The notes beneath the pieces were generated by a model. That model was not told where the DNA came from. It searched no databases and was given only the letters and a program-made list of their open reading frames with translations. 64,000 bases of DNA, taken from the NCBI RefSeq assembly GCF_964204645.1, contig NC_134031.1, forward strand, positions 9,486,001 through 9,550,000, given 5' to 3'. Numbering within the stretch: the first letter of the stretch is position 1; each line of letters starts with the position of its first letter. Of the stretch, positions 6,746 to 63,558 are shown piece by piece. The position numbers and the translations under genes are program-made. The stretch comes from Tubulanus polymorphus. Its lineage: Eukaryota > Animalia > Nemertea.

Positions 6746-8065
6746 TCAACCCAAATCTAATAAAGAGTTGATGTGTCTGGATAATAATTGGTTATGTGGA
6801 AAAAAACCAGTATTTAAATTAGTAGATAAATTGGATTTCGAAAGTTTACATATAAGGGCTGATTCCACTATGTGTCTCTTATGAATATCTTTACATGGAT
6901 AAATAAGTTTCGAATTCTGAAAGTCAAATTGGTGATTGGTTGTAAAGACATGATTCGCTATTCCACTCTCAGGCTTTTGGTTGCGGATATCTATTTTGTG
7001 TTCTTTAATACGCTGACTGAGATTACGTCCCGTTTCGCCGATGTACATCATATTACAGTCTTTACATGGTATCTTATAGACCCCGGACTCAATTAGCTCA
7101 CTGTTGGGTTTATTTTTGGTTAAAACATTAGTGAGTTTGTTATTATACTGAAAGACTAATCTAGTGTCGATGGTGCTTAATGTGGATTTAAAGCGTTCCA
7201 AAGTAGGTGAATACGGGATTATAATATTCTTTTGAGCTCTGCGTTTTGTGGTCAGGTCGTTATGTCCAAAGTGAGAAATTCGGGCTTTGAAATAAGCTTT
7301 GTTCAAAATTTTGTCTGGATAGGCTAGTTTCTTGAGAGCAGTTCTTATATGTTTGATTTCTTTATCTAAAAACATTTGATCACAAATACGTAGAGCTCGA
7401 AGAAATAATCCTTGGGCTATTCCAATTTTGATGTTCAAAGGAGTAAATGAGAAAAAATGAAGATAAGCTTCAGCGTTAGTCTGTTTTCTATATACAGAGA
7501 ATTTCAAATTTGTTTTGAAATTATGAATGAGTACATCGAGAAACGGGATGCATTTATTTTATTCCCACTCAAAAGTGAAATTCAAAGTAGGATATAAGGA
7601 GTTCAAATAATGTAAGAATCCATTCACATTAAAATCGGGGGAAACTAAACAAAGAATATCATCAACGTAACGTCGCCAAATTTTGGGTCTACTTTCATTG
7701 TAAAGAGGAAGAATTTCACTTTCGACATGTTTCAAAAATAAACCAGCAAGAACAGGGGAAAGTGGATTCCCCATAGCCATACCAAAAATCTGTTCAAAAA
7801 AGTTAGAACCAAATTGAAAATATAAGTTTTTTGTACAAAGTTCAATTAAATCCAAAAGACAATCAACCAGTATATCAAAATGAAAATCTAAAGTAGGTAA
7901 CTTTCTCCTAAGAAAGTCCAAAGTAGGTTCTAAAGGAACATTAGTGAATAAGCTAGCAACATCAAAAGATATAAATTTATCATGCCCAGGAATAACATTT
8001 TTTAAACATTCCAATAAGTCCTGGTTATGGCGTAAATGGGCATTCGAAAATGAGCCACAAATATT
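6746..8065 (-). pseudogene. PLE reverse transcriptase-GIY-YIG endonuclease (in-frame stop at 7559-7561)
   Basis: SFDVASLFTNVP, QIFGMAMGNPLSP, WRRYVDD, (stop)NKCIPFLDV, GVYKIPCKDC..YIGETGRNLSQRIKEH. Confidence 0.92.
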
Positions 8066-8808
8066 TAGATAGTCTAATAAAGAGTTGGTGTGTCTGGATA
8101 ATAATTGGTTATGTGGAGAAAAACCAGTATTTAAATTAGTAGATAAATTGGATTTCGAAAGTTTACATATAAGGGCTGATTCCACTATGTGTCTCTTATG
8201 AATATCTTTACAAGGATAAATAAGTTTCGAATTCTGAAAGTCAAATTGGTGATTGGTTGTAAAGACATGATTCGCTATTCCACTCTCAGGCTTTTGGTTG
8301 CGGATATCTAGTTTGTGTTCTTTAATACGCTGACTGAGATAACGTCCCGTTTCGCCGATTTACATCATATTACAGTCTTTACATGGTATCTTATAGACCC
8401 CGGACTCAATTAGCTCACTGTTGTGTTTATTTTTGGTTAAAACATTAGTATGATGTACATCGGCGAAACGGGACGTAATCTCAGTCAGCGTATTAAACAA
8501 CACAAAATAGATCATATCATATCATATCATGTCTTTACAACCAATCACCAATTTGACTTTCAGAATTCGAACTCTTTATTAGATTTGGGTTGATGTCACT
8601 ATGTGTCACTCTGTTATCGCCACCCTCTTCGGTCCACTTCACATAGTTACATAATTTGATTTTACTCTGAACTGTTTAGAATTGCTGTGGTTTCCATGGT
8701 ACCCCTTGATGGTTTATTGCTTGGTCTGTTTATCTTTAGTTTTGACACACTGCTTCTATTTTAGATCCTTTGAGTTTATATGCTTTGTTACTTGTTTTTC
8801 TGGTCATT

Positions 8809-8850
8809 CCACCTGATGATGGCTGTTAGTCAACAGCCGAAACGTTGTGG
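8809..8850 (+). ncRNA. Minimal type I hammerhead ribozyme in inverted PLE pseudo-LTR
   Basis: ccacCTGATGAtggctgttagtcaacagccGAAAcgttgtgg. Confidence 0.8.
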
Positions 8851-8939
8851 TTTCGTAATAATAAATTTGATCGCATAATTTCAAATTCGAACGTTGGGAT
8901 TTCTTCATTTATTTTAACACTTGTTGCATCGTTACAATG

Positions 8940-11900
8940 TGTCGTATTTCGCCTTGATCAGACCGGATTAAACCATACACCAAGTCAACACATAGAATTA
9001 CGGATCAGCCATGCTTTATTCTCCTTAAAACCTCTTCTGGTCGAATGTAACTGACAAACTTGAATAACACACAGAACAAAACGTACATCAATACATAAAC
9101 ACTACAATCCCTCCCCTTCTAGATAAAAACTGCCCTATCAAACTTTTAAGATTGGAGTGAAACATATTAATGTTATATTAGTTCAAAGAATTATAAGAAT
9201 CCTTTCCAAAAGACTGAAACACAAAATTCAACAACTAAATCTCCTAGTACTTTAAACAAATCCTTCAAGGTGACTAAAATTCCCAAAAAAATGTTTACCT
9301 AAGGAAATGAACATAAATTTTAGTACACGTCAAGAAAGATTAACACCAAATGAGTTCAGAGTAAACACGAATAACAAATCAAAAACCTTGCACGAATCAA
9401 TGGGGTAGACTACCCAGAGACTCTGGCCCTAGACCAGGAGTTATTTTGCCCTTTTAAGATCTAGGTCCATTTGAATAATTAACCACTACAGAAATTCAGT
9501 TCGTAATCTTTGAAACGTTCGGGAACAAACTTAACTCTACCAGAGCGCCTTGGCGGAGTAGACTCTTGCGGCACTGAGTCTTTGTTACCGTTAGAATTTG
9601 AGTCGATTTCCAATTCAACGTCAACGAACGGATCCGGTACATTATCCAGTTCAATATCTGGCTCCGGCTGTTTTGTCGTATCCTGATACTGTTCTAGCGG
9701 AACAGTGGGTTCTACGAATTTACGAAGATGCCCAGTGTTACGCTTATAACGGTTTCCATCTAACGAATCGACGGTAACTTCACTACCAGTCTTATCAACA
9801 ACTCTGAATGGTTTCTCGACAAATTTCGTTGAAAGTTTGTTTTGTTTCGGACCTTTCATCAAAACCACGTCACCGACTGACATGTCGTTAGTGCGCGCAT
9901 TTCTGCGGATATCAGCGTAATCTTTTCCTTTCTGTTTCAATTCCACATCTCGATCACGAACTGCGAGTTCTCTTTGACGTTTTTCATCAGTATATTGAGG
10001 CAGTTTCGATCGAATTTCACGACCGAACATAAGTCTCGCTGGCGTAGCACAGGTGATTGAGTGTGCAGTCGTTCTGTACGCCAACAAGAACTTATACAAT
10101 TCACGCTTCCAGTCTTTCCTTTTGGCCTGTGCAATACGCTTTGCTTTCAACATGGAACGATTTTGCCTTTCAAATTCACCGTTGGCCTGTGGCCACAACG
10201 GAGTGCTTAAACGATGTTCGATTCTGTTTATGTGCAAAAACGATTCGAATTCCTTGGAGACAAACTGTCTCCCATTATCGGTTTTCAACAAGAGCGGAAG
10301 CCCAAATACGGCAAACATTTCTTCCAGCTCTTTGATAACCTTCTCGGACATTATTTCGGTCATTATTGCAACTTCGAAATATCTACTAAAATAATCTACA
10401 ACCGCTAGTACATCTTCACCTCCGGGCATCGGACCCAGTAAATCAGCGGCAGTATCTTGCCACGCGGCTGTGGGCAATTCGATTCGTTTTAACGGCTCGG
10501 GTGTGATGGCTAGCTCACAAGTTGACACCCCTGACAGGAACGGCAACACGATTTGGCGTCTCTGTCAAGCCCTGGCCACCACACCTTAGACCTCAACCTT
10601 TCTTTCGTTTTGACCAAGCCTTGGTGTCTCTCGTGGGCCAAATCGACTTCTTGCTTATGCAAAGTCTCGGGTACGACTAATCGCCATCCACGTAAAAGTA
10701 ACTTTCCTACGACGCACAGTTCATTTCTCACTGATTTTAAATCCGAGGGGCAGTTTCTCCAATCCCCAGATTGAACACAATTTCGAACAACGCACAGTTT
10801 TTCATCTACAGCAGATTCTCGTTCAATTTCACGGATTTTTAACGCATGCGGTGTCGCCTCTTGAGCGATAAAACGCACAAAATCCTCAGTTTCGCTATCT
10901 TCCGCTTCGCATTCCTTCGGCCTATCCAGTAACCTCGACAGCGCATCCGCAGTCATCTGTTTTCCAGGGATATGTCGAACGGCAAAATCAAATTGTTGTA
11001 AACGCAACACCCAACGCTCTATACGGGCAGACGGTTTTGACCTCTCGAAGTAAATAAACACCAGAGGCTTGTGATCTGTAGCAATAGTAAAATGAGTCCC
11101 GTAAAGGTAGGCATGGAAACGTTCGCACGCCTACACATTTCCGAGAGCCTCTTTTTCAGTCTGCGAATATCTGCATTCACGAGTCAGACTGCGACTAGCA
11201 TATGCTATTACGCGTTTCACGCTATCTTGGATTTGAACCAATATGGCTCCCAAACCGACCGGGCTAACGTCCACAATTATTTCAGTGTCAGCACCTCTTT
11301 GAAAATAGGCTAAAGTATCGGTATTACTTAGTGCGTCTTTAAGATCATTGAACCACTCTCCCTGTTCGTCACGCCACTTGAACTTTTCATCCTGACGTGT
11401 TAACCTACGTAATGGTTCAGCGCGTGTTGCAAGATTCGGAATGAAACGGTGACAAAAGTTCACGAGACCCAAGAAGCTTTGAACTTCTTGAACTGATTCT
11501 GGTCTGCGAGCCTGTCTAATGGCCTGTACACGTTCTTCGGTTGGGGAAATCCTGTGTCTCCAAAATAAATGCCCCATAAACTCCAATTCGGGCAATCTAA
11601 ATAGACACTTGTCATTTACTGTAAGTCCCTTTTCCTCCAATTTTAGAAGAACGAACATCAACCTACGATCGTGTTGTTCTTGACCTTGACGGTGGACGAT
11701 CAAATCATCGGAGATATTCTCACAACCTTCGCACGTAGCAACAAACTGCTGAACTACCCTCTGAAATTTCTCCGGAGCGGAGCTTATTCCGAACATCAAG
11801 CGTTTATAACGAAACAGTCCAAGTTGTGTCGAAAATGTTGTAATTACGCGTGATGGTTCATCCAACTCAATTTGATGAAACCCTGATTTTAAATCCAACT

Positions 11901-13793
11901 TACTGAAAACTGTACATCCATTCATACGCTCCAAAAGTTCATCCACTGTCGGAATAGGGTGCCTTTCGCGAACTACAGCCTTATTAGCCTGCCTCATGTC
12001 GACACATAGGCGTATATCGCTGTTCTTTTTCGGAATGATAACAATGGGGCTTACCCAGGGGGTAGGACCCTCGACTGGCTCAATAATATCGTCGCGTAGA
12101 AGTTCATTAATTTTCACCTCTAGTTTATCTCGCATACTGAACGGAATACGATGCGTAGGTTGCGCAACTGGCTCAACCGAAGTATCTATAGAATCGACGC
12201 CTGGTAATCTTTTAATTTCCCAATCCTTTGGAACACGGAGGGAAAACGTTTCTTCATTTCGTCGATGTCCGCTGACATCTTCACTTGATTGACGTCCTAC
12301 TCTGAAGCTACGGTGCCTACTTTGAGCACTCATAATTTTTCGGCTGTCTCCTTTCCGAGCAAGGAACGACCAATTAGATTAACTACGGTAAAATTGGTGT
12401 TTATTTTCCTCCTACCAATTTGAACGTCAGCCGAAAATGTTCCCATTGTCGTGAGAGGATCTTTTGATCCATACGGATACAGTAGTTTTGTTGTTTTTTC
12501 GGAAACACATACTACACGCTGCTTCTTTAAATAACGCCACGTTTCTCTGCCGATTATATTTGTTGTGGAACCCGAGTCAATGAGCATTTTTATCATAACT
12601 CCTCCAATGTTTACGTGTAGTGTTCCACTCTCTAGGTTATCGCAACCATGAATCACGGAAAAAGCATAATCATCGGTTTCCTCATGGACCTGGTTCACTT
12701 TTGCCGATTTACCAGTTTTTACACGGAAATCTTTCTGTGATTTTTTTTTTAGTTTTTAGTTCACAGCGAAATGTCCTTTCAGGTGACACATATTACAAGT
12801 TTTGTCCCTAGCTGGACAGATTGGATCTTTCGACTCGTGCCCTTCACGACCACAGCGAAAACATTTATGTTTCTGACCCCCTTGCTTGTCCGGTATCACG
12901 TCTAGGTTTCTCACCTATCTCCGATCTGTTGCCATGCATACGAATCCGATTAACTTCGCCAACAGCTACTTTTCCTTCCATCTGGCGGGATGATGGTCCA
13001 CTGCTTCGAGACTCCTGGCTAATTAGAGCAACTGATTCAACGTTAAGGGGGCTTGCCCTTGACCTCTTTGAAGAGCTTTCCCCCGAAGCACCGTTGAGAC
13101 ACAACAGTCAATGACTTGATCGCGGATCTGCTCATCGCAGACATCACCAAACTCGCAATTCTGGGCCTGTCGCCTCAGTCTCGTTACGGAAGTATCAACG
13201 GTTTCATCCTGTTTCTGTTTTAGCTGTCTGAAGACGTGTCGTTCATAGGAAATATTCATTTTTTGGTGCAAAGTAAATATGTAATGCACGCAAAGCCTTC
13301 TGGTAACAATCGTCTTCAACGCCCTCTTGCTGGGTTAGCGGTAATGCAGGAACTTCTGGCAAAGTTCTGAAAACAACCTGGACGTCCATACCGGCACAAT
13401 GGAGCAATAAGGCTTTTTTCTGTTCATTATTGAAAACACCTTTCGCTACGACAAAATATTGTATGGCAGAGCGCCATCTTTTCCAGCGAGAACCAGCACT
13501 GGCCGACTCACCATGGCAATCAAATGGCTGCAGCGGCGCCAATTCAACAGGAATGAGCGCCATTTCAGATTTAACTTGCAGTTCGTACTTTCTTCTTTCC
13601 CGATTGATTTAACTCGTCGCCAAAATTGTTGTATTTCGCCTTGATCAGACCGGATTAAACCATACACCAAGTCAACACATAGAATTAAGGATCAGCCATG
13701 CTTTATTCTCCTTAAAACCTCTTCCGGTCGAATGTAACTGACAAACTTGAATAACACACGGAACGAAACGTACATCAATACATAAACACTACA
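8940..13793 (-). mobile_element. Full-length Ty3/Gypsy LTR retrotransposon (Mag-like), decayed
   Basis: 167-bp TG..CA LTRs at 8940-9106 and 13627-13793 (5 mismatches); 5-bp TSD caatg at 8935-8939 and 13794-13798; PBS TGGCGACGAG at 13622-13613; PPT at 9120-9107. Confidence 0.95.
9479..13563 (-). pseudogene. Gypsy gag-pol (Gag, protease, RT, RNase H, integrase), multiply frameshifted
   Basis: LLLHCAG Gag, LIDSGS protease, RLCVDMR/SKLDLKSGFHQ/ISDD RT, YSQTEKEAL RNase H, VDYFSRY..TDNG..NGEFER integrase. Confidence 0.93.
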
Positions 13794-15399: not shown

Positions 15400-15440
15400 C
15401 ACAAGCTTTCGCTTCTAATGAATAGAAGCTTCATCAGGTG
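15400..15440 (-). ncRNA. Minimal hammerhead ribozyme
   Basis: cac-CUGAUGA-a-gcuucua/uagaagc-GAAA-GC-UU-gug on the minus strand. Confidence 0.72.
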
Positions 15441-15459
15441 AATGATCAATTGATTCATT

Positions 15460-15500
15460 CACCTGATGAAGCTTCTATTCATTAGAAGCGAAAGCTCGTG
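15460..15500 (+). ncRNA. Minimal hammerhead ribozyme
   Basis: cacCTGATGAagcttctattcattagaagcGAAAgctcgtg. Confidence 0.75.
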
Positions 15501-25675: not shown

Positions 25676-26579
25676 AAGCAGTAATGTGACCTTTGTGCTC
25701 AATAAGGTCATTTTTACCTGTAGCTCCCGAATTGTTGGCCTATTTTAGAAGGTCGTGATGGTTACACTTTGAGAAGGGCTCTTAAACATATTAGACATAT
25801 TCTTTGATCAGTCAAGCGTGCACCGGTATCCAAGATAGTCTTAACTTGGTCAAAATTTATAAGTTACGTTTGAAAAATGATTTCACATTAATACATTTCT
25901 TCAGCCAGAAGTCATCCTGTGCCTTATACTTTTCTACTTAAATCAATTGCTTTACTTTACTAAGTTACCTTAATCTGGTTTCATATTACTTAGTAGCTCC
26001 TACCTACGTGTTGATACCTAGGAACTATGTAATAAAAATGTTTCTATTAAAAATAATTTCGGTGAACTATATTGTGTATAAATACTGGATTCGAACTCTG
26101 GTACATTGATTGGTCCAGTGTCTTTACCATAGCGTGTATCCCTGCAGGAAGACCCCCCAATACTATTTATAGTGAAAATTGAGGAGTGACAGATTTAACA
26201 ACACTAAATGTCCATGATAATTGTTGTATATATCATCTATATTCTATATTCCTTTAATGTTTAAATGTCTACGTGTAATAGCTCATTGTTTCTTGAGAAT
26301 GCGTTAATTGTTGTTTGTCTCGCTGTCAGTTTACTACTCGTTACCTTTGTTTTGATACCATTTTAATGTCTCCACCTGTCTCGTATCTCAATGTTTATAA
26401 ATCGTTTGTGTGTGAAATAAATTTAGTCCAATTTTGGTATTCCAAGCTGTTAGTTAAGTCTCACTCTCTTGGCTCTGTTCCGGATCCGACGTCGACCATC
26501 TTCACAAATAGGACCGAAAATATATAATATTTATTTAAATATAATATAATAATTTTTTTATGAAAGATTTGTATAATAA

Positions 26580-26927
26580 ATGGAGAGTAAACAATCACAA
26601 AACAATATAAACTTCATCAAAAGAATTAGAGATACTACAAATGTAAAATCAGTAGATTATAAATTTAAAAAGTTAACAGAATTAATAATTTATAAGAAAT
26701 ATTTAATTACAAATATTGAAACAATTACTACTAAATATGAAGATAAATAAGTAATTCATTTAGAATATGAAGGATTAAAAGGAAATAAATATGAATTCCG
26801 AACGTACTTACCAGATAGATTTCATAGATTATCTAGAAAAGATATTGATGAATTATGATCTGGTGATTTCTTTTTCATATATAAAGGTAAGAATGAAAAA
26901 GGACACCATGATATAGATTTCGAATAA
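26580..26927 (+). pseudogene. Isolated Polinton-like virus fragment, paralog of 41201-41554
   Basis: Colinear with 41201-41554 (NVKSVDYKFKKL..RTYLPDRFHRLS..GHHDIDFE); premature stops; TAAATG start. Confidence 0.85.
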
Positions 26928-27630
26928 AAATATAGCTGCAAAGCAGTGATAACGGGTTTTCTGCACATCCTCATTCATATTCTTGATCTTGTCTGAATAT
27001 CGTGTCGACGATCGCGTGTAAGCTGATGCAGCCGCAACATGCCATAAAAATCAAAGGGAAGTTAGAATCCTGTTCAACTGTCAAAACATTTTTATAAAAA
27101 GACGGTTGACAAACAGTCAATGAGGCCTACTTTGAAACCATGGATGACTGAACCAGATGGTTATTTGACTCTGGAAAATGGACTGTTAGGCCTCAATTAA
27201 TCTTTATGGATTTCAAAAAAGCATTTGATAAGGTCCAACATCTGCGATTACTAAATAAGCTATTCGGTAACGTTATCAATGATGGGTCGCTTGAATGGCT
27301 CAGCATATTTCTCTGAACGAAAACAGGTGGCCGAATTCAACGAAACTGTCTCATCTTGGAATAAATCGGTCTAACTAGTAGAGTCACGCAAGGTAGTATC
27401 CTCAGTCGTCTTCTTGTCGCTCTCCTGATAGATGATATACAGAATACAGTAATTCAAAATGTACCGGACAGAGTATATTTCCAAAACAACCTAATTTAAA
27501 ATGTACCCGACAGAGTATATTTCCAAAACTACCTAAACAAGCGGTGTTCCATTCATGGTCAGAAACATGGAAGATGGGCTTCGACCTGAAAGTTAATACC
27601 GATATGGGATACAAGGTAAACCCAGGTTCA
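26928..27630 (+). mobile_element. Composite repeat module with a CR1/L2-type LINE RT remnant
   Basis: Starts aaatatagctgcaaagcag; DFKKAFDKV.HLRLL.K and (S/G)VTQGSIL remnants; recurs at 47378-47725, 52311-52660 and inverted at ~61170-61305. Confidence 0.65.
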
Positions 27631-29877: not shown

Positions 29878-30636
29878 TTACTCTCTACATCTTATAACTA
29901 ATTCATAAATTACAGGAAAGTTATTCAAATCAATTAAGTATCCATTGTGATTTCTTACTTCTAATCTAAAATTATTAAAATGTGGAATACAAGGTTTGAA
30001 ATCACATTCAGTTAAATTATGATTTATTTGAGTTCCAAATTGTTTAACATTTTTTAATGGTAAAATATTTAGTATACTAGAATTACATGTTGTATCTTTA
30101 GTTGCTTCAAATGTTTTTGTAGGATCAATTAAATTACAATAAATATAGAAATGTGTGTAAGGTATTAAGTTTGATCTACCTTCTGCGTTTACTGTAACAA
30201 TATCTGGGTTAATTCCTAACAGTTTAGCTAAAGGTTTTCTTACTGTAAATTTAAATTGTTCTTCATGAGCTAACCTAATCTTTATTTTATTAGAACTATC
30301 ACTTTTTGAAAATCTAATACTTAATCCGGAATCACTTCCTAATTTAGCTCGAGCTTTTCTATTAATTTCTTGTGCTAATGTATCTAAATTATATAATCCT
30401 GGTTTTAAATATATAAAAAACCATTTATTCCTTTTTTTGTAAAAGATTGAAAAAATTAAATGTTCTAGACTTTTATCCGATATATTGTAAAATGAGTTAC
30501 ATAAACTTATATTTACTAATTTTAAATCAACACAATTCTTAAATTCTCTATCTAATTGTATTAGTAAATTATGTGATTTATAATTTGTAAGTTTTCTAGA
30601 ATCAACAAATATTCTGTATTCTTTTAATTCTACCAT
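29878..30636 (-). CDS. Minor capsid protein (penton, single jelly-roll)
   Basis: Penton-like pattern FVDSR..NSFYNI..PGLY..LAKLLGI..FYIYCNLID..ILNILP..EVRNHNGYLIDLNNFPVIYEL. Confidence 0.8.
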   Translation of the reverse strand: MVELKEYRIFVDSRKLTNYKSHNLLIQLDREFKNCVDLKLVNISLCNSFYNISDKSLEHLIFSIFYKKRNKWFFIYLKPGLYNLDTLAQEINRKARAKLGSDSGLSIRFSKSDSSNKIKIRLAHEEQFKFTVRKPLAKLLGINPDIVTVNAEGRSNLIPYTHFYIYCNLIDPTKTFEATKDTTCNSSILNILPLKNVKQFGTQINHNLTECDFKPCIPHFNNFRLEVRNHNGYLIDLNNFPVIYELVIRCRE

Positions 30637-30704
30637 TATTTATAACATAAAAAAATTACCGCTCATCACTAAAAATTAATTTTAACAAAATTTTTCCTAA
30701 ATAA

Positions 30705-31961
30705 ATGGATGAGAAGGTACCATGCGAAATTTGTGGTGAACTTCTAAGAAAAAGTAATATGGCTCGACATATGAAAAAACATGATGAAAATTATAAACCC
30801 CCTAAAATAAACTGCCCAAAATGTAAAAAATTATTCTCAAGAAATTATGTTAAAAAACATTCAGAGAAGTGTAAAATTAATGGCGCAACGGCTAATGTTG
30901 ATAGTAACGAAAGTAATAGTAATTCTGTTGAAGTTGAACCTGAAATTATTTGGAAAAGACCTTTCTTATTATATGACAAGGATAATATAAAAGATCATTT
31001 CTGCGAGCCTTGTCGAATGAAATTTAGTCCTGAAAATATAGAAGCTTGGGAGAATCATCAATTTCGTAAAATATATATAGATAAAATTTCTAATAAATTT
31101 GAAACTGAATTCAATGAAAGAAAAAATAGTTTATTAGAAAAAATAAAATATGAGAAAACGTTACCAGATAATAAAGAAACAGTTGAAAAGTTAGAAAAAC
31201 AATATAATGAATTAACAAGAAAAACATATTATTGTAAATATTGTAAATTGATTATTACAACAAGTAATTCAAATCTACATAATAGAACAATAAAACATAA
31301 AGAAAACGTAAGAAAATACCAGGAGCTTAATGAAGATCTATTACCAATAAATTATAAACAAAAATGCCCACAATGTAATTATGCGACCTTAAGGCAAGAA
31401 GGTACTGTGTTATTTTGTAATGAATGTGGATGGCAAAAGAATTTATGGGGTGAAGAAAAAACTAGAGATTTTCTCATTGAACCAAAATTAAATTATCTAA
31501 CAGAAATTTTTAAAATATTTTCTATAGAAGATCATACACCAGAAACAATTATTCCATCAACATTTAACACAAAAGAAAAGAAAATGTATTTATATTTATT
31601 ATTTGATGATTATTATGAAAAACCTAAATTAACAGAAGAAGATATGGAAAATATAAAAAAAACATTCAAACAAATATTTATGTATCATTTGGAAAATAGA
31701 ATAACAGATTCAATTAATTATGAATTCTTTTTAAATAAGATTGTAAATTATTTAAACATCGATATTATAATTCCATTTGACGAATTAACAAACAAAAAGA
31801 AACAAAGAGAGCGAGATGAAATGTGGTACAAGATAGAACTTTATTTAAATGAGAAAAATGAAATGGAAGAAGAACCTAAACAAATTATACAGGAACAATT
31901 AAATGAAAATGAAGAAGCCAATAGTGATTTTGAGTATGATGATATTGATTTTCAGTTTTAA
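30705..31961 (+). CDS. Multi-zinc-finger protein with C-terminal poxvirus VLTF3/A2-like domain
   Basis: C2H2/C2HC fingers, then CPQC-x13-CNEC ribbon, PKLNYL, EKPKLTEEDMENIKKTFKQI..INYEFFLNKI..DEMWYKI; intact 418 aa. Confidence 0.72.
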   Translation: MDEKVPCEICGELLRKSNMARHMKKHDENYKPPKINCPKCKKLFSRNYVKKHSEKCKINGATANVDSNESNSNSVEVEPEIIWKRPFLLYDKDNIKDHFCEPCRMKFSPENIEAWENHQFRKIYIDKISNKFETEFNERKNSLLEKIKYEKTLPDNKETVEKLEKQYNELTRKTYYCKYCKLIITTSNSNLHNRTIKHKENVRKYQELNEDLLPINYKQKCPQCNYATLRQEGTVLFCNECGWQKNLWGEEKTRDFLIEPKLNYLTEIFKIFSIEDHTPETIIPSTFNTKEKKMYLYLLFDDYYEKPKLTEEDMENIKKTFKQIFMYHLENRITDSINYEFFLNKIVNYLNIDIIIPFDELTNKKKQRERDEMWYKIELYLNEKNEMEEEPKQIIQEQLNENEEANSDFEYDDIDFQF

Positions 31962-34900
31962 TGGCCATAAGGTAATGGTTTTATACCATCATCTAAAGTA
32001 TGCCTTTTATCATCAAATGGATTGAAACTAGTTTTTTCAACTTTATTAATGTACATCTCGTGATCTTCTGATCTTAAACAATTCATTTTGTGTTTCATTA
32101 CAATTGAGTTATATAAACACTTTATATAATCTTGAAATTCTATATGTTTATCAACCACATGTTTTTTTATTCCTTTTAACTTTTTAGCTTCTTGATCTTT
32201 TGTTCTATAACTATACATTTTACTTCTTATCCCAACAAATTCAATCATTTCATCACCCCCTAATTCATCTTTAAATTTACCAGGAATCTTTTCATTATCA
32301 TTGCTAAATAGTTCATGATCTTTGGGATAATTGCTAAAATCAAAATGATGTTTTAATGTTTTTAAGTCTTTTGTTATGTCATTTGTCTTGATTTTTAGTA
32401 TGTAACTGTCAGTATTTTTGGCAATTAATGGAAATCCACAGTTAAATGTACCATCTTCAGTTGATAAATCATAAACATAATCTGATGGGTTATATATTTC
32501 AAATAAATCTTTAACTTCTTCTGTTAATTCTTTTTCTACATGCCTTAAATTAAAACAATTTGGTTTAGATTTAATTAATTCTATATTCATATTAAATCCT
32601 AATGAACTGCATAATATATTTAATCCTGATATAGCATTTTTTCCTTTCTGTGCAAAGGTTATCTTTTTATCATTTGTAAATTTTTTAGTGCCATCTGCGG
32701 CATAGAATCCAATGAAGAACCACTTTCTTAAATTATTTTTTGCATTTAATACATAATCTGGAACTATCTTTTTTTTTGTTGAAGTATTACTTTTCACTAT
32801 TGCATGAATATAGAATTCATCATTATATTTTATAGCAAAATCTTTAGGATTATTTACAAGTATTCTATAAACTGCTGATGATTTCATAACATCCATGATT
32901 CTAAATGTTTTATGTGAATAAACTTCTTCACAGAATTTCTTTATTCTTTCTAATAATTTTAAGTCTTGATTGCATAAATACCAACAATATTTATTACCCC
33001 AAACATAATTATACACACCTGCTGAACCATCTCCCATAAAAAATCCTTTGATAAAATATTCTTTTTCTTCTAATGTTTCAGGTTCTATATTATAAATATA
33101 ATCAATTATTTCATCAAATGACATATGATTCATTCTTTGGAAAAATCTTTTATGTAATAATTCATCTCCAATTTTTATATCAGTTGGTTTTATTTCATCA
33201 CCATTTCGTTTAATTAAACTATGATCTTCTGTAACATCTACAAACCCTAATTTAGTTCTAACTCTATAGATTTACTTATTTGTTTTATGCCTAATAATAT
33301 TCTTTAATTTTTTTCATCCATTAAACCATTTATTTGTATTAATTCTTTTTCACCATATGAAATATAACATTCATTTTGTTTTGGAATTATTTCTGAAATT
33401 CTTCTCATCAATATTTTATCATTACATTTTAATAACATTGGGGTGTCAGCTTTTGCAGAATCAAAACATAATATTTCAATATGCTTTTCCCCAAAAAGTG
33501 GTTGTTAAACATTATAATAAAAATCATACATTAATAATTTTGATACTTCTAAAACAGTTGAACCAATGAATATAGGTTTATTAAATTTCATTGACGTTCT
33601 TTTTAATTTAACTGCTGTTAAATAATCTTCAAATCTTTTATTTCCTAAATGTCTAGGACTTGATTGTAAATGTCTTAATCTTTCAGAATTATTTACTAAT
33701 TCAATATCATTTCTATTTCTAATATTTTCGCATGTTTTACCATAAAAACTATTATTCATTAATTTGAAGAAATCTTTTTCAAAATCTGTTTTTGATATTT
33801 GATTTGTACTTTCTTTAATTTCATTCCTTGTTTAAGATAAAATTTTAACATTCTATAATGAACAATATAATTGTATTTATTATTTTGAGTAAGTATTAAT
33901 TTTTCTGTAAAAACATGATCTTTCGGTTTTATTTTCTTCTGGTATTCACTTAAATAACTATCATCTACGGTTAAATGTTCTGGGCAATAAGGTAAGTTTC
34001 TTGTTTTAAACTTTATATTTTCAGGATATTCTAAATCAACTACAAAGAAATAACCAATTGGTGCTTCATCTTTTAAACTCGCAATTGTGCTTTCCCAATC
34101 AGTTTTATCCTCATTTTCAACTTCTGTTAATATAAAATTTTTGTATGGTTGAGGTTGCATCATTGCCCAACCATATAAACTATTGGCGTCAATATATAAT
34201 AATTTATATTCATCATTTGCTTTAAGATATCTATCACCCATAACACCACTAATTCCACCTCTAATTGATTTTTCAAATAATAAAACCATGTCTGGTTCTT
34301 TTAATAAATCTAATTCTACATTTGTATATTTTAAACCACATTGCCAGGTTAAACCAGGACTAGAGTAGCAATAACAAGGATCAACATTAAAATGATTCAA
34401 ATTAACTTCTCTAATTTTTTCAAATATGTCAGCCAATATCATAACATCTGATTTTAAATATAAATCAACTAATTCACCATGATTTTTCATCTTAAAATGG
34501 TTCCAAATATTTAATGTTCTATTAAACACTTCGTCTTTCACGTACTCCTCATTTAATTGATCGTAAAATTTATCTTTTAATTATTCTGTTACATTAAAAT
34601 CATTGTGTGTTTTATAAAATGAATAAGGAATTGCACCTTTATATCTCAATAATTTAAAATCTTGTTCATTTGGATAATAATATCGAGTTATTATAAAATC
34701 ATTATCAACTAAACTTTTTGATAAATTATCTAATGAACTTGCTAGAAATCTATAAGAATCTAAAAATCTAATGCAACCAAATTGAAATGAAATATAATTT
34801 TCAGATGTTTTAGCTAATAGTTTAAAATCATATTTTCTTACATTCATACCATTCATAGCATTATATTCTTCTATTTCTTGATTAATTGCGCCCAATTTTC

Positions 34901-36886
34901 CCGATAATTGTTTTATAAATAGATGGGTATCATAGCCGGATAAATTATGAAATAATATTGGAACGAAATTTACTTTTTTAGCTTGTAAATTACAATCTTC
35001 ATGAGCAGCTCGACGATATTTTGAATTTAAATGATCATGATCTCTAACTTTTTTATCAAATGAATAAAAACGTTTTTCACAATAACAACAATGAGTTGCA
35101 TAATTAAAATTAATTTCATCTTTTGTCATAACTATTCTTTTATTTTTGTTTAATAATTCTGCAAAATCACTTTCCAATTCAATTATTTTGTTACAAAAAT
35201 CATTAACTACATTTTCACCTCTAAAAGAAATATATTGACTTTCATATAATTCAGGATAATTTGATTTTATGTAAATTCCATAAGCAGCAGCTCTTTGATG
35301 AATTTTTTTAATTGTATTAATAATTGGTGGGTCTTGAATTATATCTTCATTTACTTCATTTCCTTTATCCATTGATTTTAATAATTGCTTTTTGTTATAT
35401 ATTTCTTTTCTATCTTGATCAGTTAATTCTTTATTCAACGATTCAAAATCCCCATAAATTACTAATGGAACAATATTTTTAAATATATGATTAGTAAATT
35501 TCAATTTATAATCTTTTTCTGTTGGCATTATTAGTTTACAAAAATCTTTATTATCACATAATTCTTTATGTTTTAGTAACGCATTCTCAGTTCTAAATTT
35601 AGATAAACATTTTCTACATAGATAAATTTATTATGGTGATCACTTTCTGTTCTAAAGAATAAATCAATTTGTTTTAACCACATATAATGTTCATTTTCAT
35701 CTTTTTTGTAATATAACAAATCTATAGCATTTTCATCATCATAATATTCTATTAAATATAAAGCTTCCAATGTATAATCTTTAATATTTTCACCTTTTGT
35801 CTTTGGTAATTGCATTAATTCTAATACATTTATTTTTAAATTATTAATTTTTTCTATTTTGGGTATCATTTTTATAGTTACTGGATATTGATCAATTTTA
35901 TATAATGTTTCATATTTCCGATAATTTGTTATCCTAAAACTATGCGTAATATCTTCTGTTGGGTGGAAGCGACTAATAATTGACCATAGAAAACATTATC
36001 TTCATTTTGAATATTTATTACTCCTTTTCTGTTGTAAAGTTTGAATCATTTTTAAACATTTTATTACTTTTTGATGTTTTATTTCTTTTTGTACTATAAA
36101 CATTTAAATCTAAAAATATAATTTCATTCAATGTTAAGCCAGTACCCTCAAAATATCTTTCTTCAATATGACGTTTAAATTCATTAAATATTTTTTCTAA
36201 TTTCTCTTTTATTTGTGTTTTTGAAATTATTTCTTCAGAGAGTGTTTGAATATTATAATCCATTTTATCTTCTGACTTTAAAAACTTATTTTCCCAGAGA
36301 TACTAATTTTTTGATATTCAACATCTGTTATCAAATCTAGTATTTTTTCTATTATTTCATTAAATTTACTATAATCTTCTATTGTTGTACCTTTAGAAAA
36401 TTTAAATATAATAGCTGCAGGACCAATTTTACTACGTAATGTTTCTAATATTTCAATTGTATCTTTTATTTCTAGTGAATCAATATAATTTCTAACATTT
36501 TCCATGTTAGGTTTATTTGAAATGGATTTAGTTTTTGAAGTTGTTTTTTTTACTTTTTGAGGTTTATCATCGAAATAATCTTTTCATAAAACATTATTAC
36601 TCAAATTTTGATGGTGTTTTTGTGATTCGAGATGTCTATTATAATTCCTTTTTGTTATAAATTCATCACAAACTTCACATTTTATTTCATCCACATTCAT
36701 ATCATCTAATCGTTCTTTTCTTTCATTTGTATTATCTAGTGTTTCAAAATCTATTACATTTTATATGATTTGCAGTTTTTTCATGTCGTGATTTTTGGGA
36801 TTTATCGATGTATTTTTTACAATATTGGCAATAATAGTGATTTTATTAACATTATTATTTTCTGGCTGGTGTTCATTCTCCCCCAT
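31958..36886 (-). pseudogene. polB: Protein-primed family B DNA polymerase (ZnF, OTU-like, exonuclease with HNH/EndoVII insert, polymerase), intein-containing
   Basis: VIYGDFES, KVRDHDH..AAHEDCN, FHNLSGYD, YIDANSLYGWAM, MNNSFYGKT, CFD|intein|TDS, IRSKMY; frameshifts, stops and small deletions. Confidence 0.92.
32414..33459 (-). mobile_element. Intein with LAGLIDADG homing endonuclease at the PolB pol-c site
   Basis: Block A SAKADTPMLL after D; block B VDVTEDHSLI; blocks C/E FIKGFFMGDGS and FFIGFYAADGT; blocks F/G YVYDLSTEDGTFNCGFPLIAKN followed by T+1; absent from copy B (YFDTDS). Confidence 0.92.
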
Positions 36887-37217: not shown

Positions 37218-37300
37218 AAAAGTGAACACGGAGAGCCTACAAATATCTATATATCTATATCTAATATGTAGATATTTGTAGGCTCTCCGTGTTCACTTTT
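37218..37300. repeat. Perfect 32-bp-arm hairpin (foldback mini-element)
   Basis: aaaagtgaacacggagagcctacaaatatcta / tagatatttgtaggctctccgtgttcactttt. Confidence 0.85.
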
Positions 37301-37302
37301 AT

Positions 37303-37576
37303 GAGTAATAGGGGTAATGGGCTTTCAAGCCAAAGGTCGAACGGTCGAGTTCATTAAAAACAAAACATTAATGTCACTCCGCGACCAATTGATTTATTTA
37401 CAATACACAAATTCATATAATCAAATATATTTTAATAATAATAATTATTCTATTATTCAACTGAAATACACACGGTTATGAAAATATATTATAGTTTTAA
37501 ATTACTTTTAATGTTTTGTTTTTAATGAACTCGACCATTCAACCTTTAACCTGAAAGCCCATTACCCCTATTACTC
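37303..37576. mobile_element. MITE with ~70-bp TIRs and GAG..CTC termini
   Basis: gagtaataggggtaatgggctttca...aaaacattaa mirrored at 37508-37576. Confidence 0.7.
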
Positions 37577-37781
37577 CTAAAATAATCATATAAATGAATA
37601 ACATTTAAATTGACAGATTATTCAATATAAAAGTATATATTTACAACATTATTTCAATATTCATATTTGTGTGAGTTAGATTATTAAACATTAAAAGTGT
37701 TAGTAAAGTGTGATTGAAATAATACATGATATAAATCATTGAACTTCTAAAATCAATTTTAATAAAAAATTTAGTATTAAA

Positions 37782-40700
37782 ATGGAAGCAAATAAGTACT
37801 ACTGCCCAACATGTAATATCAATTTAGATAAATCCCAAAAAGCAAGACACAATAAAACTAAAACACATTTAGAGGATAAATTGAAACTAGAATATGAAGA
37901 TGATATATTAGAAACTAAATTAGAAGAATTAAAGAATGAAAAAGAAACATTCAAATGTGATACATGTAATCAATCATTCAGTGATAAAAGATATTATAAT
38001 AAACATTTAAAATCTAAAAGCCATATTAGAAATAAGAATAATGATATTTTAGTTGAAGATTATTTTGATAATGATAATGATAAGAAACAGAAGACAATTA
38101 AAAGCATAAAAAATAAATTAAACAATAAAAGACCATACATGGAAGATGTAAGAAAATATATTAATTTATTGGATAATAAAAAAGATATAGAGAGGATAAT
38201 AAAGAAGATATTGAGATAACCGAAGCATTTAAAAGTGATATTGGCCCAGCAGCTATCGAGTTTAAATTTCATAAAGGAAAAACGTTAGAAGAAAATAAAA
38301 AACATTTAGAAAATATGGAAGAAATAATAAAAATAATAACTGATGTTGAATATCCCAAAATAAGTATTTCATCAAAACTTAAATTCATAAAATCTGAAGA
38401 TAAACCAATATATAATATAAATTATCATTCACAACATATTATATATAAACAACATATAGATGATAAATTAGATACATGTTATAATGAAGTAAAAACTAAA
38501 ATAGAAGAGAAATATTTTGAAGGATCTGGTTTAATATTTGATGAAATAATATTTATGACTTTACATGTGTATAACACAAAATATAATAAGTTAACTAAAT
38601 CAAAACCAATTGATGAAAATAATGTATCATATTATAAAGAACCAGATATTGAAGAATCGAGTTATATTAAACTACCATTTAAAACTAATGCTGTTATAAA
38701 TGTACAAAATGAAGATGATAAATGTTTTCTATGGGCTATAATAAGTTGTTTACACCCAGTTGAAGATTATAAACAACATAGTTTTAGATTAACTCATTAT
38801 AAACAATTTGAAAATAATAATAAGATAGATAAGTATCCTGTTATAATTAAAAACATCCCAAAAATAGATAGAGATAATAATATAATGATAAATGTATTTG
38901 ATTTAATCAAATTACCAAATACAAAAGGTAACAATATAAAACATTATACATTAGAACCTTTATATCTATCAAAAGATTATGATTCAAATGATCTTATAGA
39001 TATACTATATTATGAGAATCATTATATGTGGATTAAACAAATCGATTTATTTTTTAAATCAGAAAATGATCACCATAAAATATATCTTTGTAGAAAATGT
39101 TTACATAGATTCAGTAATGAAAGTACATTATTAAATCATAAACAATTATGTGAAAATCATGATTATTGTAAATTAGTTTTACCAAATGAAAAGGATAAAA
39201 TATTAGAATTCAAAAAATATGATAACAAAAATAAAGTACCATTTGTAATATATGGAGATTTTGAATCATTAAATAAAGAATTAACTGATCAAGATAGAAA
39301 AGAAATATATTATAAAAGAAAGAAATTAAATTCTAATGAAAATGCTTTTTCAGATGAACCACCAAAAACAAATACTATTAAAAAGATTCATGAATCAGCT
39401 GCTGCTTTCGGGTTATATATTAAATCTGATTATCCAGAACTAATTGAAAGTGAATATTACAATTACAGAAATGAAAATGTTATCAATCATTTTTGTGACT
39501 TAGAAAATGTGAATAGAAAATCATGGGCAATTAGTAGATTTATATTTAAAATCAGATGTATTATTATTAACTGATATATTCGAAAGGTTTAGAGATGTAA
39601 ACCTAAAATATTTTAACATTGATCCTTGTCATTGTTATTCATCGCCAGGATTAACATGGGATTGTGGATTAAAATTTACAAATATAAAAATGGATTTGTT
39701 AACAAATATAGATCAATTATAAAAAAAATATATTGAATATATTTGAAAAATCTATAAGAGGAGGAGTTTTAGGTGTATTAGGTGATAGATATTTCAATGT
39801 AAATGATAACCCCGGATATAAGTTATTATATATAGATGCAAATAATTTGTATGGTTGGGCAATGATGGAACCACAACCTTATGGAGTATTTGAATTAACT
39901 GAAGTTTTACAGAATGAAAATAATGATAAATTTGATTGGAAGAAAAGAATTCTAGATATTGCAGATGATTCAGATACTGGTTACTTCTTTGTTGTAGATT
40001 TAGAATATCCTGAACATATTAAATTTAAATCTAGAAATCTAGCATACTGTCCAGAACATAAAACTGTAACTCATGAAGAATTATCAAATTACCAAAAAAG
40101 AATTGAACCCGAAAATCATATTCATACAGAAAAGTTAATGGTAACTCAAGAAGATAAATATAATTATGTAGTACATTATAGAATGTTAAAGTTTTATCTA
40201 AAACAAGGAATGATCCTAAAAAAAGTACATAGTTATATTTCATTTAGTCAATCTAAGTGGTTAGAAAAATATATAGATTTTAACACCAAACAGAGAACTG
40301 AAGCTAAAACTGATTTCAAGAAAGATTTTTTCAAGTTAATGAATAATGCATTCTATGGTACGACTTGTGAAAATATTAGAAATAGAAATGATATTGAGTT
40401 AGTTAGTAATGGTAAAAGGATAAGGCATTTACAATCATATCCTAAGTTCATTGGTAACAGAATATTTGATGAAAATTTAGCTGCAGTTAAGATGAGAAGA
40501 ACATCAATGAAATTTAATAAACCAATCTATGTTGGCGCTTCAGTTTTAGAATTATCAAAATTACTAATGTATGAATTCTATTATAATGTATTACAACCAC
40601 TTTTTGGAGAAAAACATATAGAAATATTATATTTTGATACAGATTCTTACATATTAAAGATAAAAACTGATAACATAACTGATGATTTAAAAACATTAAA

Positions 40701-41169
40701 ACATCATTTTGATTTCAGTAACTATCCTAAAAATCATGAATTGTTTAGCAATGATAATAAAAAAGTTCCAGGGAAGTTTGAGGATGAATTAGGTGATGAA
40801 GAAATGATAGAGTTCATCGGTATCAGATCTAAAATGTATTCATATAAAACTAAAGAACATGAAGCTAAAAAGTTAAAAGGAATAACCAAAAGTGTAGTAG
40901 AAAAGAATATTCATTTCAAAGATTACATCAATTGTATATTCAATGAAGAAGTAAGAAAACATAAGATGAGATGTTTAAGATCTGAAGATCATGAAATGTT
41001 TATTGAAGAAATTGAAAAGATAAGTCTAAACCCATTTGATGATAAAAGATATATTTTAGATGATGGAATTCATACAGTTGCTTATGGTTGTAATTTAGAT
41101 GAATACTTAAAATTTAAAAGAGAAGAAACAAAACAGAACGAGATAATGAAAGGAATTCTAACGTGTTAA
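37782..41169 (+). pseudogene. polB: Protein-primed PolB, intein-free, with internal deletion and frameshifts
   Basis: Two C2H2 fingers, NEDDKCFLWAI, YGDFES, YIDANNLYGWAM, KLMNNAFYG, YFDTDS; HNH/ExoII region missing at ~39500. Confidence 0.92.
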
Positions 41170-41200
41170 TCAAATTTTAATAAAAATATATATATTATAA

Positions 41201-41554
41201 ATGGAGGGTAAACAAGCGCACAGTGAGAACAACAAATCATTTCTAGATAGAATAAAAGATACTTCAAATGTCAAATCAGTAGATTATAAATTTAAGAAGT
41301 TAAAAGAATCAATAATCCATAAGAAATATCTAATTACAAATATTGATATAGTTACTAACAAATATGGAGATAAATTAGTTATACACTTAGAATATGAAGG
41401 ATTAAAAGGAAATACACATAAATTCAGAACATATTTACCGGATAGATTTCATAGATTATCAAGTGAAGATTTAGAAGAATTATGTTCTGGTGATTTCTAT
41501 TTCGTATACAAAGGTAAGAATGAAAAAGGGCACCATGAAATAGATTTCGAATAA
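41201..41554 (+). CDS. 117-aa viral protein, possibly OB-fold/ssDNA-binding
   Basis: Intact; beta-rich pattern FKKL..KKYLITNIDIVTNKYGDKLVIHLE..TYLPDRF; fold call is inference. Confidence 0.6.
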   Translation: MEGKQAHSENNKSFLDRIKDTSNVKSVDYKFKKLKESIIHKKYLITNIDIVTNKYGDKLVIHLEYEGLKGNTHKFRTYLPDRFHRLSSEDLEELCSGDFYFVYKGKNEKGHHEIDFE

Positions 41555-41571
41555 GAAAATATGTAAAATAA

Positions 41572-46111: not shown

Positions 46112-47364
46112 ATGAGTGGGAGTTATATCAATCCTTGTAAGAATCATAGAATATCTAATGCTATTAAAGCAGAAAGATCACATCATATAATTACTCATAA
46201 CCCTTCTAATATTAATCCTGATGAAACTTTATATGTTAGAATTCCGAGATTAACACAAAATACTTTTTATGTTCAAAATAGTATTTATTTATCAGCCGAT
46301 GTAAAAGTAATCGGTAATAATAATAATTATGTTGTCGATAATGTTGGAAGGTATTTGATTAAAAAATTAACTATAAAGATTGGCCCAGAAACAGTTTTCT
46401 CATTAGATGATTATAATTTATTTATGCATTATAAAGATTTATGGTTAACTAAAGAAAATAGAAATAATATGATATTTCAAGGCATCCAATCAGAAAACCA
46501 AAATAAATTAAGATCAGGAGCTAATGACGCAATAGTAACTAATGCTGTAGATAAATTGATAAAAAAGATTTATGGAAGCAAATATAAAATTCCATTAGAC
46601 TTTGAATTGATAAATAATAATGCACCTTTATATAAATATGTAATTCAGGAATTCAAGACATTATATTCGAAATAACATTTGCTCCTGTAAATGAAATTGT
46701 ATTATCTAGCGTTGTTAAAGATATGAGTTATAAATTATCGAATATATGTTTAGAATATGATACAGTAACTGATGAAAATATTTCAAGTATAATTCAAACT
46801 AAATACAATCAAGGATTTTCATTATTATATGATTATATTGATAAATTTAAAACCGTAACTATTAATGCAAATGATGAAATAATTAATGAGAATATTAACT
46901 TCCCAAGAAGATCTATTAAAGGTATATTAATATTTTTTACCATTGCAACATATTCTAATGGTGCAATACAGGTTGATAAGTATTATAATCCCGATATTAC
47001 AAAAGTAGAAATAACTATCGAAGGAATAGCAAATAAAACATTTTGTCAAGGAATGAGAATGATAGATCAATGGCCAGAAATTAGAAAACATTTTATGAAT
47101 GAAAAAGTAAAATCATCTGAAAATTGTAATATTAATCAAATTGATTATTATACCGGTAATAAATATGCATTATGGTTAGATTTTAGAACAACAGAGGATA
47201 ATTCATTACATGGTTCATGAAAAAAATTACAAAACACTAAAGATGGAATACAATTATTCATGACAAAGAAAAAAGGAAGCCTAAATTTCAAAATGCACAT
47301 TTATATTATATCTGACGCGCAATTAAATATTGTAAATTCTCAATTGAATAGTGTTATGTATTAA
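46112..47364 (+). pseudogene. Major capsid protein (double jelly-roll), frameshift ~46650 and stop at 47218
   Basis: ~415 codons, beta-rich; ITHNPSNINPDETLYVRIPRL..NVGRYLIKKLTIKIG..YKIPLDFEL..NICLEYD..YYNPDITKVEITIEG..KYALWLDFRT..ISDAQLNI; resembles invertebrate PLV MCPs as recalled. Confidence 0.75.
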
Positions 47365-61589: not shown

Positions 61590-63558
61590 AATTTGATAAT
61601 TTTCAGATGTTTTAGCTTATAGTTTAAAATCATATTTTCTTACATTTACACCATTCGTAGCATTATATTCTTCTATTTTTTGATTAATTGCACCCAATTT
61701 TCCCGATAATTGTTTTATAAATATATGGGTATCATAGCCTGATAAATTATGAAATAATATTGGTACGAAATTAACTTTCTTAGCTTGTAAATTGCAATCT
61801 TCATGAGCAGCTCCACGATATTTTGAATTTAAATGATCATGATCTCTAACTTTTTTATCAAATGAATAAAAACGTTTTTCACAATAACAACAATGAGTTG
61901 CATAATTAAAATCAATTTCATCTTCTTTTGTCATAACTATTCTTTTATTTTTGTTTAATAATTTTGCAAAATCACTTTCTAATTCAATCATTTTGTCACA
62001 AAAATCATTAACTACATTTTCACCTCTAAAAGAAATATATTGACTTTCATATAATTCAGGATAATTTGATTTTATATAAATTCCATAAGCAGCAGCTCTT
62101 TGATGAACTTTTTTAATTGTATTTATAATTGGCGGGTCTTGTGTTGTGTCTTCATTTAATTCATTTCCTTTATCCATTTGATTTTAATAATTGCTTTTTG
62201 TTATATATTTCTTTTCTATCTTGATCAGTTAATTCTTTATTCAACGATTCAAAATCCCCATAAATTACAAATGGAACAATATTTTTAAATTTATGATTAG
62301 TAAATTTCAATTTATAATCTTTTTCTGTTGGCATTATTAATTTGCAAAAATCTTTATTATCACATAATTCTTTATGTTTTGATAATGTATTCTCAGTCAT
62401 AAATTTAGATAAACATTTTCTACATAGATAAATTTTACGATGATGATCACTTTCTGTTCTAAAGAATGAATCAATTTGTTTTAACCACATATAATGTTCA
62501 TTTTCATCTTTTTTGTAATATAACAAATCTATAGCATTTTCATCATCATAATATTCTGTTAAATATAAAGCTTCCAATGTATAATCTTTAATATTTTCAC
62601 CTTTTGTCTTTGGTAATTGCATTAATTCGAATACATTTATTTTTAAATCATTAACTTTTTCTATTTTAGGAATCATTTTTATAGTTACTGGATATTGATC
62701 AATTTTATATAATGTTTCGTATTTCCGGTAATTTGTTATTCTAAAACTATGTGTCATATCTTCTGTTGGGTGTAAGCAACTAATAATTGACCATAGAAAA
62801 CATTTATTATCTTCATTTTGAATATTTATTACTGCTTGTGTTGTAAATGGTAATTTAAAATAAGATGATGCTTTAGTATCCTTTTCTGTTGTAAAGTTTG
62901 AATCATTTTTAAACATTTTATTACTTTTTGATGTTTTATTTCTTTTTGGATTATAAACATTTAAATCTAAATATATAAATTCATTCAATGTTAAGCCAGA
63001 ACCCTCAAAATATCTTCCTTCAATATGACGTTTAAATTCGTTAAATATTTTTTCTAACTTAATGTAATGTTTCTAAAATTTCAATTGTATCTTTTATTTC
63101 TAGTGAATCAATATAATTTCTAACATTTTCCATGTAAGGTTTATTTGAAATGGATTTAGTTTTTGAAGTTGGTTTTTTTACTTTTTGAGGTTTATCGTCA
63201 AAATAATCTTTTCCTAAAACATTATTACTCAAATTTTGATGGTGTTTTTGTGATTCGAGATGTCTATTATAATTCCTTTTTACTATAAATTCATTACAAA
63301 CTTCACATTTTATTTCATCCACATTCATATTTTCTAATCTTTCTTTTCTTTCATTGGAATTTTCTGGAGTTTCGAAATCTATTACATTTTTTATATGATT
63401 TGCAGTTTTTTCGTGTCGTGTTTAATGAGATGTATCAACGTATTTTTTTACAATATGTGCAATAATATTGATTTTTATTAACATTATTATTTTCTGGCTG
63501 GTGTTCATTCTCCCCCATTTATTAGGGGAAAAAATTACTTGTGGTGATGAGTGGTGTC
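61590..63558 (-). pseudogene. polB: Polinton-like virus copy C: 5' half of pPolB, same lineage as copy A
   Basis: Highly similar to ~34790-36926; ATG at 63518; NKCFLWSII, YGDFES, KVRDHDH..GAAHEDCN, FHNLSGYD. Confidence 0.9.

Follow-up and report, generated by a model that had tools for sequence, protein, structure and literature searches.

The window, that is, the whole stretch of 64,000 nucleotides analysed here, contains no N, and no host gene was found in it. Its flanks differ sharply in base composition from the elements they enclose (36–39% GC in the flanks versus 24% in the elements), and the elements carry three copies of a protein-primed PolB (pPolB; Table 1). In copy A, which is decayed, motif C is split by an insert at D/TDS, where the slash marks the insertion point. 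The polymerase reads IEILCFD up to 33460, the insert begins with SAKADT at 33459 and terminates with IAKN at 32414, and the polymerase picks up again with TDSYILK at 32413. The empty site is represented by copy B, which reads IEILYFD/TDSYILK without interruption at 40618–40659; in a blastn self-comparison the two copies align as far as 33460 and then once more from 32405. The limits of the insert and both junctions had been given in an earlier note on this DNA, and its coordinates proved exact. The residues of a class 1 intein are present in the insert, namely Ser1, TEDH, a terminal Asn and Thr+1, and the penultimate residue is Lys, compared with His in 9 of the 13 pPolB inteins considered below (12 full-length inteins plus the window piece).

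Table 1. Features of the window, with positions counted from its first letter.
Feature	Position	Strand	Remarks
Intein with LAGLIDADG endonuclease	32414..33459	-	1046 bases; pseudogenised in the window copy
N-terminal splicing piece, Ser1 first	33325..33459	-	53% identity (23/43) with the intact relative P0003
Broken stretch, private to the window copy	33272..33316	-	Frameshift near 33314 and stop at 33274-33272
Block B / N3 motif TEDH	33221..33232	-	Read from sequence; TxDH in 13/13 pPolB inteins
LAGLIDADG motif 1, GFFMGDG	33026..33046	-	Sequence motif
LAGLIDADG motif 2, GFYAADG	32690..32710	-	Sequence motif
C-terminal splicing blocks, Lys-Asn end, with G-F-P-L-I signature	32414..32479	-	Sequence motif
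N-extein, pPolB copy A	33460..36836	-	tblastn with intact P0171; several frameshifts and stops
C-extein, pPolB copy A, Thr-Asp-Ser first	31958..32413	-	75% identity with intein-free P0171
pPolB copy B, broken; empty site between 40638 and 40639	37743..41169	+	Sequence, self-comparison, tblastn
pPolB copy C, 5' part only, stops short of the intein site	61596..63439	-	92% identity with copy A
Element A gene	29878..30639	-	DUF5901 weak, E 0.0035, below cut-off; paralogue in element B at 41572-42327
Zinc-finger ORF, convergent with pPolB A	30705..31961	+	zf-U1 E 9.6e-7
Candidate major capsid gene, element B, two frames	46112..47220	+	Capsid_N E 0.0016, below cut-off
Host repeats: Penelope-like RT with GIY-YIG, Gypsy-type LTR retrotransposon	6746..13608	-	Profile matches

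The window intein copy is a pseudogene, because the intein carries a frameshift and a stop and the surrounding polymerase carries frame changes and stops. From 33271 onwards, and across the C-terminal part of the polymerase, the reading frame is open. The earlier note had correctly described the endonuclease and C-terminal splicing part as open, but had begun it at 33133; its tally of N-terminal damage is borne out, with one frameshift accompanied by one stop, and one further stop. Raw reads from X5, a DNA run of a different sample that belongs to a separate study under the same species label and of which approximately 12% was read, disagree with the window at 33274 (138 of 138 reads) and at 33314 (69 of 70). 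As expected of a class 1 intein, an exact empty allele exists and intact relatives of the insert are in frame; the window copy itself is frameshifted. HMM searches had been proposed as a check in the earlier note, and a Pfam search of the open frame returned LAGLIDADG_3 above the cut-off (E 6.7e-7) and Intein_splicing below it (E 4.7e-5). The profile TIGR01445 was absent from the window pieces and from P0008, scored above the cut-off in P0254 and P0006, and fell just below it in P0003 and P0007. No PDB sequence matched the open frame. A Hedgehog-type or BIL Hint domain was also considered and was ruled out by the endonuclease, the empty allele and the presence of both splice junctions.

The insert is not a chance arrangement: at E<=1e-3 it matches 113 long proteins, and a set of 50% representatives contains 1044 relatives. 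Seventeen of the 113 were inspected by eye, and the others were classed by Pfam lists and junctions. The nine best sequence matches are pPolBs with an intein at the identical site, the top match being P0003 at 63% identity; the remainder are mostly RNA-primed PolBs with YGD/TDS junctions, plus topoisomerase II. Related inteins occupy two sites in the type II topoisomerases P0014, P0051, P0071–P0079, P0385 and P0451, a few of which have both sites filled, and these inteins form one group in the intein trees. The 143 new 50% representatives comprise 124 RNA-primed PolBs, 2 topoisomerases II, 17 unassigned proteins and no pPolB, an absence that is no sign of rarity since such representatives hide filled alleles. 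A search with copy B yielded an intein in one of 119 new matches (P0254), among the best 120 of 4701. Elsewhere, a phage collection gave one distant match (27%), the Atlas search with the intein returned generic LAGLIDADG or intein clusters only, and pattern-based locus searches of viral, metagenome and genome contigs, which required near-exact peptides, returned no relatives. One further pPolB ORF, P0179, has its C-terminal part repeated at the N-terminus in a tandem or permuted-like arrangement, and its motif C is altered.

The intact in-frame relatives of the intein are 333–354 aa long. Ser is first and Asn last in all 12 full-length pPolB inteins, and TxDH and both LAGLIDADG motifs, including their acidic residues, are kept in all 13 rows, window piece included. 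The earlier note had asked whether a Hint fold is present. For the intact relative P0003, 63% identical to the window insert, a Hint fold and a two-motif LAGLIDADG endonuclease fold are predicted, the prediction concerning P0003 and not the window copy. This model, built from a 49-row alignment, has a pLDDT of 93.7 and a pTM of 0.92; in the PDB it comes closest to endonuclease-bearing inteins (7qsu, E 9e-19), and among the viral models of BFVD to giant-virus PolBs. Motifs, Pfam matches and the YGD/TDS junctions of the relatives support the claim of the earlier note that a LAGLIDADG intein occupies the giant-virus-type motif C site of a pPolB.

The polymerases of the window group with P0171–P0173, within a set that holds the PF03175-positive P0003 and P0254, and their own pieces gave no Pfam PolB family match. 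By this grouping they are of pPolB type rather than RNA-primed PolBs. No integrase, packaging ATPase or protease was found among the ORFs scanned in the elements, which are fragmentary; because of this, and because the capsid candidate is weak, the elements are filed as Polinton-like only. A single-sequence model of that candidate was uninformative (pLDDT 34.7), and no relative of it was found in IMG/VR. The small gene of element A is possibly a minor capsid protein. Between the back-to-back elements lie a near-perfect hairpin (37218–37300) and a longer inverted repeat (37297–37582), which may be terminal structures. A lone 370-base fragment (26563–26934) is 83% identical to the small gene of element B at 41184–41561.

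Phylogenetic analysis places the 13 pPolB inteins in a single clade in four trees, with support of 100/99 (54 rows), 97 (148 rows), 99 (144 rows) and 100/100 (30 rows); the trees exclude three false sub-parses, rows shorter than 320 aa and any intein that was partial or unparsed. Both the identity of the insert as an intein and the existence of this clade are solid. The clade is nested among RNA-primed PolB inteins, largely of giant-virus type, and together with the motif C site this position identifies the insert as the motif C intein allele of giant-virus PolBs, a site labelled pol-c. In an AU test, a placement of P0007 outside the other twelve pPolB inteins was not rejected (p 0.117). With distant PolB or topoisomerase inteins as the root, this nested position would imply a capture in the direction from a giant-virus-type PolB to a pPolB. 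Since the 13 form one clade, the capture was likely single and old, followed by spread between Polinton-like elements, rather than a fresh jump into the window copy.

Intein presence was further mapped onto a 57-row polymerase tree with 15 filled and 42 empty rows, the latter comprising 41 of the 43 empties chosen from the 119 matches, plus copy B. Filled and empty polymerases are interleaved in a patchy distribution, and the nearest polymerases to copy A, copy B included, are empty. The tree requires 10 changes, 9 of them forced by starred branches, compared with an average of 13.3 after shuffling, although such counts cannot distinguish gain from loss. One reading is that an old capture was followed by vertical inheritance and repeated precise loss, with an endonuclease that no longer drives spread. 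Across the main pPolB class the identities of inteins (46–66%) and exteins (42–68%) do run parallel, and the same three sub-clades occur in the polymerase and intein trees. Because of this parallel divergence, and because an empty allele in the P0006 cluster is 99% identical to the filled one with 0 of 30 site differences, much of the intein's history may have been vertical. P0007, from a distant pPolB class, nevertheless needs a horizontal step, because its intein is 44–49% identical to the others while its extein is only 24–32% identical (in short local matches). Purely vertical descent is also at odds with the retention of both LAGLIDADG acidic motifs in 13 of 13 inteins, and with filled and empty alleles that coexist at 97–99% identity in two clusters, with site-focused differences in one, and we regard it as unlikely.

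The site-focused differences come from the P0254 cluster, of whose 136 members 40 were read and 15 listed, on contigs of 57 kb to 1.0 Mb. Among the 14 other listed members, 6 are filled, 6 are empty and 2 are too short. Filled and empty copies are 94–98% identical overall, yet differ at 8–11 of the 30 residues around the site compared with 0.7–5.7% elsewhere (Fisher p 4e-12 to 3e-4), a concentration that homing predicts; the 21 pairs in this test depend on one another, and the width of the segment compared was picked after the flanks had been viewed. The empties of this cluster show three different site variants. Six more distant filled/empty pairs gave p values of 0.02–1. The pattern in the P0254 cluster would fit co-conversion or escape from cutting, and homing is the likely mode of spread among pPolBs. 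At motif C, D-C-D-S replaces D-T-D-S in the empty alleles P0299 and P0297 (P0254 cluster), P0181 and P0185, possibly reflecting target-site escape.

The identity of the host is the weakest link of the overall case. Besides the Penelope-like and Gypsy-type repeats, the flanks contain a 31-base satellite and an (AT)93 run. The satellite forms two arrays (47769–49558 and 54091–59516) with higher-order periods, and self-complementary stretches at 15352–15548 and 60009–60363 resemble miniature inverted-repeat elements. Penelope-like RTs with GIY-YIG, satellites and microsatellites fit animal genomes. The nearest clusters to the Gypsy RT are eukaryotic, the best being commonest in Chordata (19 members with known phylum). 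From this repeat landscape and a weak cluster label, the host is very probably an animal. The phrase "animal nuclear DNA" in the earlier note accordingly stands as far as a repeat-rich eukaryotic setting goes, and its animal part is a deduction from the flanking repeats. The same biology in a protist, fungus or alga would agree with a window in which no host gene was found, with the fungal and diatom clusters that come next for the Gypsy RT, and with the occurrence of Beta-type PolBs in non-animal datasets as well, according to the accessible part of one report (PMC8502044). We consider a non-animal host improbable, given the best Gypsy cluster, repeat types that fit animals, and the relative P0009, whose record belongs to a symbiont MAG obtained from Ctena, a bivalve. 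Two pPolBs, this P0009 (Thiodiazotropha MAG) and P0186 (Sulfurimonas), are of Polinton type under bacterial names and are likely mis-binned host or virus DNA.

As for the donor, the C-terminal signature is found in 13 of 13 pPolB inteins versus 7 of 135 others, all seven of which are in RNA-primed PolBs. These seven uncultured PolBs are the closest outside relatives of the pPolB inteins. Four IMG/VR contigs are related to one signature PolB, and three of them are named giant-virus MAGs; the PolB of L001, a giant-virus MAG contig, has an intein with the same signature, and the other three loci are empty. The sister of the pPolB clade is the signature group in the 144-row tree (support 92) and four other rows instead in the 148-row tree, with no resolved sister in the 54-row and 30-row trees. 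P0013, a PolB like Pol delta with a weak C4 zinc-finger match, has an intein near the pPolB clade and possibly represents an alternative donor type. The earlier note had proposed homing from an NCLDV PolB during co-infection. Such a direct, one-off jump into this element, with the other pPolB cases as separate jumps, would account for giant-virus-type PolB inteins that are 42–45% identical and share the site, and for one giant-virus MAG with an almost identical C-terminal block. Since the closest relative of the window intein is another pPolB intein and all 13 fall in one clade in four trees, this scenario is already largely refuted, and we rate it as very improbable. The mimivirus likeness that the same note had perceived needs qualification. 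A Lys-Asn end is not diagnostic, as the pPolB inteins end in HN (9/13), KN (3/13) or SN (1/13), and the closest outside relatives are the seven signature PolBs rather than sequences identified as mimiviral. An origin specifically from a mimivirus was rejected, because KN ends are common among the relatives and the trees contain no named mimivirus sequence.

Sequencing reads provide a separate view of the elements. The stretch is present in 4 of 10 listed sequencing runs with one species label, those four coming from one study, possibly the source of the window itself. In X5, 3008 reads fall on the intein region, mostly 85–99% alike: 75 at >=99% identity, 1007 at 95–99%, 981 at 90–95% and 945 under 90%. 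Depth is 116–267 across the intein versus 36 at 26000–26400, values that cannot be converted to copy number because no single-copy stretch is established. Just inside the N-terminal junction there are 236 reads, while an exact 1046-base skip occurs in 27 reads (20 starts) and a variant empty site in 16 more; the empty reads may come from a B-type family. There is good support for a multi-copy family that is endogenous to a eukaryote. A free virus or contaminant mis-assembled onto host repeats, as the sharp GC step and the lack of any read or contig piece across the element–flank junction might suggest, is scarcely credible beside three pPolB copies with frameshifts and stops, a window without N, many divergent copies in reads of a separate study, and relatives on contigs of up to 1.0 Mb.

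Several known systems resemble the window intein in part. The Mimivirus R322 intein shares a length of ~350 aa, Ser first, Asn last, Thr at +1, the N3 Thr/His and LAGLIDADG, as described in the accessible text (PMC549080). In giant-virus-type PolB relatives, YGD/TDS is the equivalent motif C site. Unlike those inteins, the pPolB inteins form their own clade, and the window intein resides in a protein-primed PolB, the exteins of which can scarcely be aligned to giant-virus PolBs, in an element that is small, chromosomal and multi-copy. The archaeal and fungal inteins TliVMA, PhoVMA, PI-PfuI and PI-SceI share the Hint splicing fold and two-motif LAGLIDADG domain, but are 12–18% identical and lie in other host genes. 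HNH/VSR inserts are likewise endonuclease domains inside Polinton pPolBs (PMC10748475; PMC11071308), and one sentence in the accessible part of the latter report suggests that they derive from intein invasions (PMC11071308). No splicing domain is described for them in the accessible text, and the word "intein" occurs 0 times in the available text and supplement of PMC10748475; in contrast, the window insert, which interrupts a catalytic motif, has LAGLIDADG and full splicing motifs, and its empty alleles are clean. Inteins have also been reported in viral-like DNA polymerases on nuclear scaffolds of two algae and a labyrinthulomycete, a comparable entry into a nuclear genome within an endogenous viral polymerase, although "Polinton" and "animal" appear nowhere in the accessible text or supplements (PMC10710043). 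The Beta-class adintovirus/Polinton PolB shares with the window polymerases weak or no PF03175, less than ~30% identity to the strong-PF03175 class and a nearby candidate capsid; the window elements differ in that integrase, ATPase and protease were not detected among the scanned ORFs, and inteins are not mentioned in the available text and supplement (PMC8502044).

With respect to novelty, a 2018 survey of eukaryotic inteins lists 0 for Metazoa in the accessible supplement (PMC5784728), and an insect iridovirus intein is already known, so inteins in animal-infecting viruses are not new (PMC549080). The belief expressed in the earlier note that no intein had been described in a Polinton-type pPolB is upheld within the papers and supplements searched, in their accessible parts, a set that lies mostly outside subscription literature, Repbase and InBase. 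No pPolB intein is reported in the accessible text of PMC12220804, PMC3671162, PMC13768754, PMC7765530, PMC5718144 or PMC4104785. What the searched papers do not describe is an intein within a pPolB, and within a chromosomal element that is multi-copy and probably lies in an animal.

The explanation that we favor, and hold to be probable, is that the window contains a decayed copy of a pPolB motif C intein lineage, likely derived from one capture from a giant-virus-type PolB, likely spread by homing and likely housed in an animal. By established intein chemistry, an intact intein would splice itself out through the Ser1 and Thr-x-x-His start, cleavage at the terminal Asn and Thr+1 as acceptor, thereby restoring the D-T-D motif of the polymerase. 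Another copy with an empty site would be cut there by the two-motif LAGLIDADG domain, and would gain the intein when the break is repaired with the filled copy as template. The elements being multi-copy, filled and empty targets would be available in one nucleus. For the broader reading, in which an intein lineage of animal nuclear genomes rides germline Polinton-like viruses, homes within the nucleus, has crossed two pPolB classes and has driven target-site escape, the case for and against appears evenly balanced.

At the sequence level, these observations are evidence of gene transfer from giant-virus-type polymerases into Polinton-like viruses, and they supply a concrete case in favor of the proposal that the endonucleases of Polinton pPolBs come in as inteins. 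Homing and target-site escape can be tested directly in the families whose filled and empty copies are 97–99% identical. Within a multi-copy element, an intein would also not depend, as inteins usually do, on a second individual to provide the empty allele and, if the hosts are animals, the lineage described here would be an intein persisting in animal nuclear DNA.
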